A DNA stretch of 24,511 nucleotides, from assembly GCA_964354805.1 (NCBI GenBank), contig CAYHBD010000025.1, positions 1 through 24,511 of the forward strand. The letters are read 5' to 3'. The notes under the pieces were generated by a model that saw nothing but the letters and a program-made list of their open reading frames with translations, ran no database searches and had not been told where the DNA came from. A program made the translations under genes and the position numbers. This document shows positions 7,722-16,852 of this stretch, piece after piece (the stretch's first letter is position 1; every line of letters starts with the position of its first letter). The stretch is from an uncultured archaeon. Lineage in GTDB: Archaea; Iainarchaeota; Iainarchaeia; Iainarchaeales; GCA-2688035.

Positions 7722-7755
7722 AACCTTTTTAAACAAGTTAGCATTTAATCATTTA

Positions 7756-7812
7756 GTTTTGCGAAAGCAAAACCATTTTTACCAAGGCTTTTTTGCGAAG
7801 CAAAAAAGGCTT
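7756..7812 (+). repeat. Dispersed hairpin repeat, copy A
   Basis: GTTTTGC-GAAA-GCAAAAC followed by AAGGCTTTTTTGC-GAA-GCAAAAAAGGCTT; flanked by ATTTAATC direct repeats (7743-7750, 7814-7821). Confidence 0.85.
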
Positions 7813-7825
7813 AATTTAATCTCTG

Positions 7826-9793: not shown

Positions 9794-9844
9794 GCTTTGC
9801 CGAAGGCAATTTTTCCCAAGGCTTTTTCCGAAGGAAAAAGGCTT
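9794..9844 (+). repeat. Dispersed hairpin repeat, copy B
   Basis: TTGCC-GAA-GGCAA followed by AAGGCTTTTTCC-GAA-GGAAAAAGGCTT. Confidence 0.85.
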
Positions 9845-9887
9845 TGTAAAAGGATTTTTAATTAAATGTTTCCTTTTTCTCTTTTAA

Positions 9888-14392: not shown

Positions 14393-14926
14393 GTGAAAAA
14401 AAGCATTTATGCCTTGGCCTTGTTCCTTTTATTGTTTAGTGCCAGCTGCCAGGCGCTAATTGTTAATGAAATAGGCACTATTGTGGTGCAGCAGGATGAA
14501 AGAAGCGTTGATGTTAAAATAAAAAACGATTCTGATGAAACGCAGGATTTCACTATTGAATTGAGCATTCCAAACGCATCAATTGACCCAAGCGAGGGTA
14601 GCCTGGAAGCAGGGGAAAGCATTACAGCAAGCCTTTCAATAATTCCAACTGAGGATTTTGCTGGCTCAACCTATTCAGGGCAATTGAGGGTTTCAATTGG
14701 CGAGGAGCAGGAAAGAAGGGAAATAAAAGTAATGTTCAAGGAAAAACAAGTTGAAAAGCCGGCTGAAGAGCCGGAACAGCCAGTTCCTGCTGGTTTCTTT
14801 GCATTGCCTGACCTTTCAGCTTTTTTTACAGCTGAGAATGCGCTGAACATTGTTCTTGCAATTGTCGCAGCAATTCTGCTGATTGCTTTTATTGCAAGAC
14901 TTGTTAAAAGGCTGGAGGCGAAGTGA
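14393..14926 (+). CDS. Secreted, C-terminally membrane-anchored Ig-like surface protein
   Basis: Signal peptide after GTG 14393 (preceded by GGTGGGGA), beta-rich acidic domain, P/E linker, TM helix and basic tail. Confidence 0.8.
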   Translation: MKKSIYALALFLLLFSASCQALIVNEIGTIVVQQDERSVDVKIKNDSDETQDFTIELSIPNASIDPSEGSLEAGESITASLSIIPTEDFAGSTYSGQLRVSIGEEQERREIKVMFKEKQVEKPAEEPEQPVPAGFFALPDLSAFFTAENALNIVLAIVAAILLIAFIARLVKRLEAK

Positions 14927-16852
14927 ATGAAGGCATGGATTGCATCAATTCAGCCTTTTGCTTTGCAAAAGCCTTTTTGCTTCGCAAAAAGCCTTGGGAA
15001 ACTTTGCCTTCGGCAAAAGCCTGGGAAAAAAACAGCAATTGCATCAGTCGCTTTTGTTCTGCTTTTGATTGCGTCAGGCGCTTATGCGCAGATTTCCTTG
15101 ACACCGAGCATCAAGCAGGTGTATGTATCAAGGAATGATTCAATCGGATTGCAGTTCCAGCTGAAAAATTTAGGCAGCAATGAAACATGCATTACACTTT
15201 CAACAGACCAGAATGATGCTTACATTGAAACAGATTTGAGCGCTGACCAAATTTGTTTGAATGAAGGTGAATCAACAAATGCAACTCTTTCAATTAGAAC
15301 AGTGAATGCGCCGAAAGGCTTGCATAGTGTAACGCTGCTATGCCAATCAGGCAATGGCGACGCAAATGCAGTTGTTTCAGTCTATGCAGCAGAAGAGCCC
15401 GAAATTGAGTTAGTTGCTTATCCGAATGATGTTTGCAGCAGCAGGGAAGAGCAATTGAATGTTTTGGTTAGAAATAACAGTGATGAATTCAAGCAGGTGC
15501 AGCTGCAGGCTGAGAATGAAATGCTTTTGCCTTTCTTCAAGCCAAGCAGCCTAAGCCTGCTGCCACACCAGGAAAGGTATGTTAAATTGGTTGCTGCTGC
15601 TTCGCCTTCTTTGGATGAAGAAGAATACACTGTGAGCATGTATGCAATAACAGGCGATGAAACTGTTAAGGAAACGGTTGAATTAAGGGTTGTTGATTGC
15701 GATGAAGAGGAAACCGGCTTTTCTTTGAAAGTGCCAAGCGGTTGCATTTCAGTTGAAAAGGAAAAGGACAGGAAGGTTTTCTTTTCAGTGAAAAACGAGA
15801 AACAGGATGAGCAGCTGCTTGAGTTTTCCGTAAGCGACGAGCTGCCTGTGGCACTGCAGACAGACAGCGCCTGGCTTGAAGCAGGCATTGAAAGGCAGTT
15901 TTATTTTACTGTAAACATTCCGGCTGATTCAGCTGTAAAAGACTATAATTTGAGCATTTCAGTTTCAAACAACGGGCATTCAATTGAGAAAGGCGTCTGC
16001 ATCAGGCCACAGAAAATTCATTTGACTTATGTAACAGTGCAGGGAAACGATTTTGGCATTGCTGAATGCGGCTCCGCTGTTTTCAAAATACTGCTCGAAA
16101 ACGGCGGGGATTACAGCGAAAGATTCCAATTGAGCCTGGTAAATGACAATGAGGATGCGGCAGATGCCGTTCTTTCTGAAAAAGATGTAACAGTTGAAAA
16201 GCACGGCAGCAAAACTGTTTTCGTGAACGTAAGCGCTTTGCAAGAGGCAGAGCTCGGCGATTACGAGATTGAATTGAGTGTTAAAACAGCAGCAAAAACA
16301 TTTGAGGAAGAGCTGCGCTTTTCAATTGAGGGCGAAGAAGAACCTGTTGAGCCAGAATTGCCAGGGCTTGAAATTGCAAGCTATCCAAGCGCAATAACAA
16401 TGGACGAAAACAGCGAAAAATCAGTGTTTGTTTCAATCAGGAACAACAGCGAGAAAACAATTGAAGGCATTTTAATTAAATTAATCAGCCTGCCTGCCGG
16501 CATAACAGCAACAAAGGAAAGCGAAATTTCCCTCGAAGCAGGGGAAGAGCAGCAGTTTGAATTGATTTTGAATACGGCAGCAGGAACAGCAGGCGAGCAC
16601 AGCATTAGCGTAAGCGCGAAAAATGCAGATTACAGCGCCGCTAAAACAATAAGGCTGATTGTTGAGAAAAAAGAGGAAGCGGCAGAGCAACAGCAGGCGC
16701 CTGCATTTGCCGGATTTGCCAGCCTGCTTGCAGCAGGGGGCAGCGCATTGCTCGGCCTGGCTGCATTGATTATTCTTGTGACTGTTATTGTTTTAATTGC
16801 AAAGGCAGCGGCAAGCCCAACACAAATAAAAAAAGAAGTGTGGATGAAATAA
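14927..16852 (+). CDS. Multi-Ig-like-domain acidic surface protein with C-terminal TM helix
   Basis: Repeated ~100-aa units with (L/V)xN...L..GE/H patterns, a signal peptide interrupted by a repeat insertion, and a C-terminal TM helix. Confidence 0.82.
   Translation: MKAWIASIQPFALQKPFCFAKSLGKLCLRQKPGKKTAIASVAFVLLLIASGAYAQISLTPSIKQVYVSRNDSIGLQFQLKNLGSNETCITLSTDQNDAYIETDLSADQICLNEGESTNATLSIRTVNAPKGLHSVTLLCQSGNGDANAVVSVYAAEEPEIELVAYPNDVCSSREEQLNVLVRNNSDEFKQVQLQAENEMLLPFFKPSSLSLLPHQERYVKLVAAASPSLDEEEYTVSMYAITGDETVKETVELRVVDCDEEETGFSLKVPSGCISVEKEKDRKVFFSVKNEKQDEQLLEFSVSDELPVALQTDSAWLEAGIERQFYFTVNIPADSAVKDYNLSISVSNNGHSIEKGVCIRPQKIHLTYVTVQGNDFGIAECGSAVFKILLENGGDYSERFQLSLVNDNEDAADAVLSEKDVTVEKHGSKTVFVNVSALQEAELGDYEIELSVKTAAKTFEEELRFSIEGEEEPVEPELPGLEIASYPSAITMDENSEKSVFVSIRNNSEKTIEGILIKLISLPAGITATKESEISLEAGEEQQFELILNTAAGTAGEHSISVSAKNADYSAAKTIRLIVEKKEEAAEQQQAPAFAGFASLLAAGGSALLGLAALIILVTVIVLIAKAAASPTQIKKEVWMK
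14948..15037 (-). mobile_element. Dispersed hairpin repeat, copy C, inserted in-frame in a coding sequence
   Basis: Minus strand reads TTTGCC-GAA-GGCAAA..CCCAAGGCTTTTTGC-GAA-GCAAAAAGGCTT. Flanked by ATTGCATCA direct repeats at 14939-14947 and 15038-15046. Mobility is inferred. Confidence 0.75.

Follow-up and report, generated by a model that had tools for sequence, protein, structure and literature searches.

A hairpin repeat inserted in frame in the signal peptide of a DPANN surface protein: a probably translated leader extension with the geometry of a candidate splice motif

What becomes of a gene when a hairpin repeat stands within the codons of its signal peptide? The question is raised by a stretch of archaeal DNA of 24,511 nt (hereafter the window), which is contig C25 of a 1.38 Mb genome (49 contigs, 44% GC, 88.5% complete) belonging to a Diapherotrites/Iainarchaeota MAG, a DPANN host with a reduced genome. 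One gene of the window, flanked on both sides by genes for similar surface proteins, encodes a protein that starts with a signal peptide, continues with Ig-like repeats (FixG_C, NPCBM_assoc) and ends in a transmembrane anchor (Table 1), and the ATG of this gene follows directly after the TGA of the upstream gene in a stop/start overlap context. The encoded N-terminus reads MKAWIAS-IQPFALQKPFCFAKSLGKLCLRQKPGKKTAIAS-VAFVLLLIASGAYA, with QISL following the likely cleavage site, and shows the features of a Sec-type signal, i.e. a basic n-region (MKAW... together with a basic insert), the core VAFVLLLIAS and small residues at positions -3 and -1 (AYA before Q).

When analysing this N-terminus, the direct repeat ATTGCATCA was found twice with a start-to-start distance of exactly 99 nt and in frame, as the original prediction had claimed. 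The repeat is exactly 9 nt long, the neighbouring bases differing on both sides, and the open reading frame of the gene continues through the 99 nt without a stop. Removal of these 99 nt, consisting of one repeat copy and the 90 nt between the copies, gives a leader that reads MKAWIASVAFVLLLIASGAYA ahead of Q and matches the signal peptides of all orthologues seen in both length and shape, in agreement with the earlier claim that an ordinary signal peptide would be restored. The insert was also said to be stop-free and to encode a basic peptide, and this holds, the frame being open throughout and the insert carrying a charge of +7. The absence of stops is however nothing special, since the other two plus frames are open over most of the signal-peptide copy, one minus-strand open reading frame spans it and the consensus of the repeat family, by reading, contains no stop in any of the six frames.

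Table 1. Positions of the gene, the insert, the candidate splice motif and further repeat copies in the window
Feature	Position	Strand	Basis
Surface protein gene, 641 aa	14927..16852	+	ORF list and domain search
Shine-Dalgarno-like GGAGG, 8 nt before the start codon	14914..14918	+	read from sequence
Signal peptide as now encoded, 54 codons, likely cleavage site between AYA and Q	14927..15088	+	
Left copy of ATTGCATCA, codons I-A-S	14939..14947	+	
Right copy of ATTGCATCA	15038..15046	+	
Inserted 90-nt composite of the hairpin repeat family, sense orientation	14948..15037	+	
Hairpin 1, AGCC-TTTTGC-TTT-GCAAAA-GCC	14952..14973	+	
Hairpin 2, family core, GCC-TTTTTGC-TTC-GCAAAAA-GCC, then tail TTGGGAAA	14971..15001	+	
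Hairpin 3, TTTGCC-TTCG-GGCAAA, C(UUCG)G loop, then AGCCTGGGAAAAAAA	15003..15032	+	
Candidate bulge-helix-bulge, 5' half: h 14938-14940, H 14941-14944, bulge 14945-14947 (cut after 14946), h' 14948-14950	14938..14950	+	
Candidate bulge-helix-bulge, 3' half: h' 15037-15039, H 15040-15043, bulge 15044-15046 (cut after 15045), h 15047-15049	15037..15049	+	
Family copy, intergenic, just behind tRNA-Pro(CGG), flanked by the 8-nt ATTTAATC (7743-7750, 7814-7821)	7743..7821	-	
Family copy, intergenic, 88% complementary over 57 nt to the signal-peptide copy	9796..9852	-	

The 90-nt insert is a row of separate hairpins, the second and third of which are standard modules of the repeat that is also present in the two intergenic copies of the window. 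Inspection of the insert revealed no terminal inverted repeats, its ends (ATTCAGCC... and ...AACAGCA) not being complementary, and its 3' end, GCAATTGCA, resembles an arm of another module of the family and overlaps the native ATTGCA. The folding energy of the insert region is ordinary when compared with shuffled sequences (z = -0.92) and energy alone is thus no marker of a hairpin element. In the predicted minimum-energy fold 14 bp, of which several are G-U, join the Shine-Dalgarno and start region GCUGGAGGCGAAGU (14911-14926) to hairpin 3 (15002-15015); pairing of this kind would hide the ribosome-binding site and could lower translation. Around the copy behind tRNA-Pro, the 11-nt repeat TTTTGCGAAAG was also seen near 7757 and 7851, ~94 nt apart.

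Orthologues of the surface protein are present in 39 out of 41 related genomes, with alignments to the query that begin at about residue 34-41, and when the orthologous open frames from 11 genera were read they all started with a signal peptide of 22-26 residues, for example MNSGKILLISLVLVLLSTSALA and MKHWTTIILSAFILLLMASGTFA. Four closer proteins (81-86% identity, 607-614 aa) also have short leaders without the insert, so the empty allele that the original prediction called for does exist, and the long N-terminus, whose presence in distant orthologues had been named as the observation that would speak against an insertion, was seen in none of the orthologues examined. The insert is kept in one protein from another sample, P0002 (92% identity, 641 aa), where 32 of its 33 residues are identical, the sole difference being L to N, towards the family consensus GGGAAAAATTGCC. 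As the orthologues are short and the same insert recurs in P0002, the insertion is real and not an assembly artefact. It is this comparison that establishes it, the 9-nt flanking repeat alone being weak in a genome of low complexity, where a flanking repeat of at least 8 nt was found at 28 of 90 repeat loci and at 12 of 90 in a shifted control. Judged from the compared sequences, the insertion is lineage-specific and old enough to be common to two diverged strains. A search of the protein collection for a 608-aa form at >92% identity found none, and a scan of metagenomes returned only empty alleles and distant relatives. Between the query and P0002 there is 1 difference in the first 60 residues and roughly a dozen in the next 50, which hints that the leader may be under constraint.

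At the DNA level the start context GGAGGCGAAGTGAATG is common to the allele with the insert and to two empty alleles (L013 and L014), in both of which GGAGG and the ATG are conserved. A translation start downstream of the insert, the other observation that would have spoken against a lengthened leader, was considered and rejected, the only start-like codon beyond the insert being a TTG at 15065, inside the hydrophobic core.

A search of the genome with the unit pattern AAGCC-T(4-8)-NN-loop-NN-A(4-8)-GCC revealed 91 hairpin units in 90 loci; 56 of the 91 units are followed by TTGGG and the exact sequence AAAAGCCTTGGG occurs 51 times. The units, ~30-60 nt in size, stand in variable arrays. Their stem tips covary (GC/GC, CAC/GTG, CC/GG) and the flanks are fixed, including a C.C mismatch which together with a GGGAAAA tail makes the unit strand-asymmetric. 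The purine tail mirrors the 3' arm, a G being found at the mirrored position in 12 out of 15 units with a G-interrupted arm, although two subfamilies could give the same count. In its layout, a hairpin and behind it a purine tract mirroring the 3' arm, the family is like the BoxC / PIT / TM-ECO repeats of bacteria, which are said to be intrastrand-triplex repeats; the tail of the signal-peptide copy is however degenerate (GGGAAAC), and a triplex is putative. Rfam contained no family for the hairpin element, the only real match in the window being tRNA-Pro.

Many loci of the family sit in long open frames. Copies were identified by Pfam in genes for Elp3, a class I aminoacyl-tRNA synthetase (IleRS-like), Dus and Fic, and those in Elp3 and Dus were checked by alignment with five and two orthologues, respectively. 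Elp3 (C16 62953-64635, loci L017/L031) carries two separate 45-nt in-frame copies, which appear as clean 15-aa inserts missing from the five orthologues; the second is flanked by the 12-nt direct repeat CAGCCTTTTGCT, the native copy of which encodes the conserved QPFA. Dus (C30 16511-17563) contains one 18-aa insert when compared with its two orthologues. Since no splice motif is present at any of the three, both Elp3 inserts and the Dus insert must be translated if the enzymes work. In two Fic-domain paralogues (C8 49842 and C43 19620) a repeat copy is located at the same position, within the match to the Fic profile; either the insertion is older than the duplication or the site was hit repeatedly.

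Leaders are a second kind of site. Three type IV pilin-like genes (C47 16379-17578, C8 4071-4667 and C8 3372-3866) have class III leaders lengthened by 25-55 residues of translated repeat, which stands after the start codon and ahead of the conserved RAQAGLEYL processing region, as in MNS-KAFLLPQQPFAPAKAWGKIASQKALGKLPS-ARAQAGLEYL, whereas in pilin paralogues of this genome 5-10 leader residues precede (R/K)AQAGLEYL (MHSKAQAGLEYL). The original prediction had suggested a search of the proteome for translated repeat peptides, and such copies were found in at least eight other proteins of the genome, three of them in cleaved pilin leaders; the presence of copies there as well fits the idea of a tolerated, cleaved site. 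As the unit is read in different frames (KSLGK, KALGK and KPWEK), no single peptide is selected. When conserved genes disrupted by an out-of-frame copy of the family were searched for, none was found, all frames returned being antisense or non-coding. Most simply, and in line with the original prediction, which the data support, selection would purge insertions other than in-frame ones at positions that take additional residues without harm, the best of these positions being leaders removed by cleavage. The family clearly favours sites at which the extra peptide is thrown away (Sec and pilin leaders) or forms an outward loop (Elp3 and Dus).

The flanking duplications vary among the copies, with lengths of 8, 9, 12, 21, 26 and 27 nt. 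Short ones are found at the tRNA-Pro copy of the window (8 nt) and at the second Elp3 copy (12 nt), long ones at C16 22977-23075 (21 nt), C9 82664-82780 (27 nt) and C16 23250-23360 (26 nt); the 21-nt duplication copies the 3' end of tRNA-Gly(GCC), and the tRNA gene stays intact. Since the length of the flanking repeat is not fixed and the insert is without terminal inverted repeats, the family is not a classical MITE, and as no partner transposase was identified either, the selfish palindrome of the original prediction is putative in the sense of a transposon. When the genome, 88.5% complete, was searched for a reverse transcriptase (PF00078) as the mobility agent no match was found. At both Elp3 copies, the Dus copy and the C47 pilin copy the native codons at the 5' junction were already AAG, AAGCC(T) or AGCCTTTTGC, identical to the first bases of the unit, which suggests an insertion guided by microhomology rather than by a transposase. 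We suspect copying between loci via microhomology, for example by replication template switching, which could give variable "duplications" without any transposase. A common target motif, ATTNNATC, had been suggested by two short duplications and was rejected since it is missing from the longer ones.

For the surface protein, we find it probable that the insert is translated as an extended Sec n-region with a charge of +7 and is removed together with the leader, leaving the mature protein unchanged. According to this reading a 90-nt composite of three hairpins would have entered between codons 7 and 8 of a Sec-type signal peptide and left a 9-nt flanking duplication, making 99 nt in total; because the family is nearly stop-free in any frame and 99 is divisible by three, the gene stayed open. 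Ribosomes would start at the original GGAGG/ATG and read through the insert, giving a 40-residue n-region with a charge of +8 ahead of an intact hydrophobic core and cleavage site, and signal peptidase would then cut off the whole leader, so that the mature surface protein would be unchanged and the insertion nearly neutral. Translation of the insert would lengthen the n-region from 4 to ~40 residues and raise its net charge from +1 to +8. The hydrophobicity peak over 11 residues begins at residue 38 when the insert is present and at residue 5 when it is removed, the Kyte-Doolittle maximum being 3.13 in both cases, and the insert contains no hydrophobic window rivalling the true core. The core and the AYA-Q site are untouched, and we infer that the lengthened leader still directs export. 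Against this reading stand the unusual length of a 40-residue n-region, the minimum-energy fold in which the start region is predicted to pair with hairpin 3, an exact bulge-helix-bulge geometry at the ends of the insert, with a chance expectation of only 0.4-1%, and the gene carB of the same genome, which seems to need mRNA splicing.

The latter two points lead to another explanation, possible but doubtful, namely that the insert is, or has become, an archaeal bulge-helix-bulge (BHB) intron which is cut by the splicing endonuclease, with the exons joined by an RNA ligase, so that the short leader is made. Introns of this kind reportedly occur in archaeal protein genes, such as cbf5 of Crenarchaeota. 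The candidate resembles the cbf5 type in its 3-nt bulges, its 4-bp helix and in that excision would restore the ancestral coding sequence exactly, and differs from it by very weak flanking helices, by an insert that is in frame and translatable and by sister copies without the motif. When applying the standard rule, in which two bulges of 3 nt enclose a helix of 4 bp and the RNA is cut behind the second base of each bulge, the candidate cuts would remove exactly 14947-15045, 99 nt, and the predicted exon joint consists of GGATTGCATC followed by AGTCGC. The geometry is exact, with a 3-bp helix h (GAU/GUC, pairs G14938-C15049, A14939-U15048 and U14940-G15047), a 4-bp helix H (UGCA/UGCA), two bulges UCA of 3 nt each and a 3-bp helix h' (AUU/AAU), and when applied to the genes for tRNA-His, tRNA-Arg and tRNA-Gln and to the two for tRNA-Pro, the same rule finds their true introns.

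A complete motif is present in 1 of the 10 registers compatible with the direct repeat, and the candidate is the only strict BHB motif in a regional scan of 156 nt. By chance such a motif was obtained in 0.37% of simulated duplication-flanked insertions and at 66 of the 6697 9-mer direct repeats of the genome (1.0%); ~8 in-ORF copies were however inspected, for which we estimate a family-wise chance of ~1-2%, suggestive rather than decisive. If splicing does take place, for which the case is tentative, ATTGCATCA could be regarded as the pseudo-symmetric core of the motif, composed of AT, the palindrome TGCA and the bulge TCA, but palindromic cores in short duplications can also arise by chance. 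The flanking helices h and h' of the candidate are short and, apart from one G-C pair, consist of A-U and G-U pairs, whereas h is 5-7 bp at true tRNA sites; on the other hand, most long tRNA introns of this genome begin with the hairpin repeat and have h' helices of only 2-3 bp. Constrained folding was tried as a discriminator and discarded, since genuine tRNA sites score as low as the candidate, with P(BHB) of 3e-11 to 1e-4 here and 1e-8 to 1e-4 at the true sites.

BHB-type splicing of mRNA is plausible in this host, as the genome harbours one EndA gene and as a hairpin of 34 nt, out of frame and with bulges that fit the geometry, interrupts its carB. What the family does elsewhere points in the other direction. 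Neither of the two Elp3 copies nor the Dus copy has a BHB motif in any register that yields the right product, with boundaries taken from the orthologues, and scans of the IleRS-like insert and the three pilin leaders showed no BHB motif that would remove the insert, so the family does not depend on splicing. The insert of the surface protein gene is moreover in frame and stop-free, neither of which splicing would require, its removal is not needed, and the direct repeat around it fits the flanking duplications found at other copies without a BHB motif. We regard it as unlikely that the insertion created, or was kept for creating, a working BHB site at which the tRNA splicing endonuclease removes a repeat-derived 99-nt in-frame intron from the mRNA. 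Were splicing true, a mobile hairpin repeat would here be caught turning into a protein-gene intron, one gene could yield long and short leaders depending on splicing, and a functional splice-site geometry would link the spread of repeats with the birth of introns in protein genes. The interruption of carB (C22, minus strand, ~14300, locus L027) is a stop-containing hairpin between GEAGE and FDYSG that shifts the frame; its BHB geometry is relaxed (H GGCG/CGUC, bulges AAA/AAU) and it does not belong to the hairpin repeat family.

That the insertion damages the gene, the leader failing or the hairpins blocking initiation in a gene heading for loss or using another start, would agree with the modelled sequestering of the Shine-Dalgarno and start region by hairpin 3 and with an n-region far longer than in any orthologue, but is highly improbable given that the 641-aa frame is intact in two strains differing by 8% in protein sequence, that only one difference separates these insert-bearing strains in the first 60 residues, that no usable alternative start exists downstream of the insert and that three pilin genes tolerate the same kind of leader insert.

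With the insert read as a translated and cleaved leader extension, the nearest known parallel is bacterial. Palindromic repeats that settle in genes without breaking the frame are a well-known peculiarity of Rickettsia. The Rickettsia palindromic elements (RPEs) are described as dispersed palindromic repeats found in frame in unrelated protein genes, including those for housekeeping enzymes (Ogata et al. 2000, as cited in PMC10969869). The hairpin family is like them in that a family-typical peptide is added and orthologues are without the insert; RPEs however measure 100-150 bp and belong to Rickettsia, whereas the units described here are ~30-60 nt, stand in arrays and reside in an archaeal DPANN host, and the hairpin family, unlike RPEs, is also found in tRNA introns and in N-terminal leader peptides. 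The likeness to RPEs pointed out in the original prediction thus stands for the way of working, an in-frame, stop-free and family-typical insert missing from orthologues, and is best taken as a functional analogy and not as sequence homology.

With MITEs and REP/BIME-type repeats (PMC10969869, PMC3733652) the family shares that it consists of short, non-coding, multi-copy hairpins, mostly intergenic and sometimes with flanking duplications. It differs from MITEs in that the insert is without terminal inverted repeats, the duplications (8-27 nt) are not fixed and the unit is strand-asymmetric. In-frame fusions of MITEs have been reviewed (PMC10969869) and the hairpin family behaves alike, the archaeal MITEs listed in the same review being those of Sulfolobus, Halobacterium, Haloquadratum and a few other archaeal genomes. 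Limited literature searches returned no description of in-frame palindromic repeats in archaea, DPANN included, or in signal peptides. The evidence supports regarding the present case as an archaeal counterpart of RPE-type in-frame insertion, in which the splice-motif geometry is the new point, and the family can serve as a clean natural test of where in a protein new sequence is tolerated.

Of the 23 tRNA genes identified with ARAGORN, 11 contain introns, and in at least six cases the intron opens with a repeat unit right at the 5' splice site. ARAGORN missed a tRNA-Ser(CGA)-like gene (C28 18050-18200), which contains an intron of ~70 nt that starts with a repeat unit as well, and the 11-nt sequence TCGAAAGGCCT occurs in this gene at the anticodon loop and again in the variable arm.
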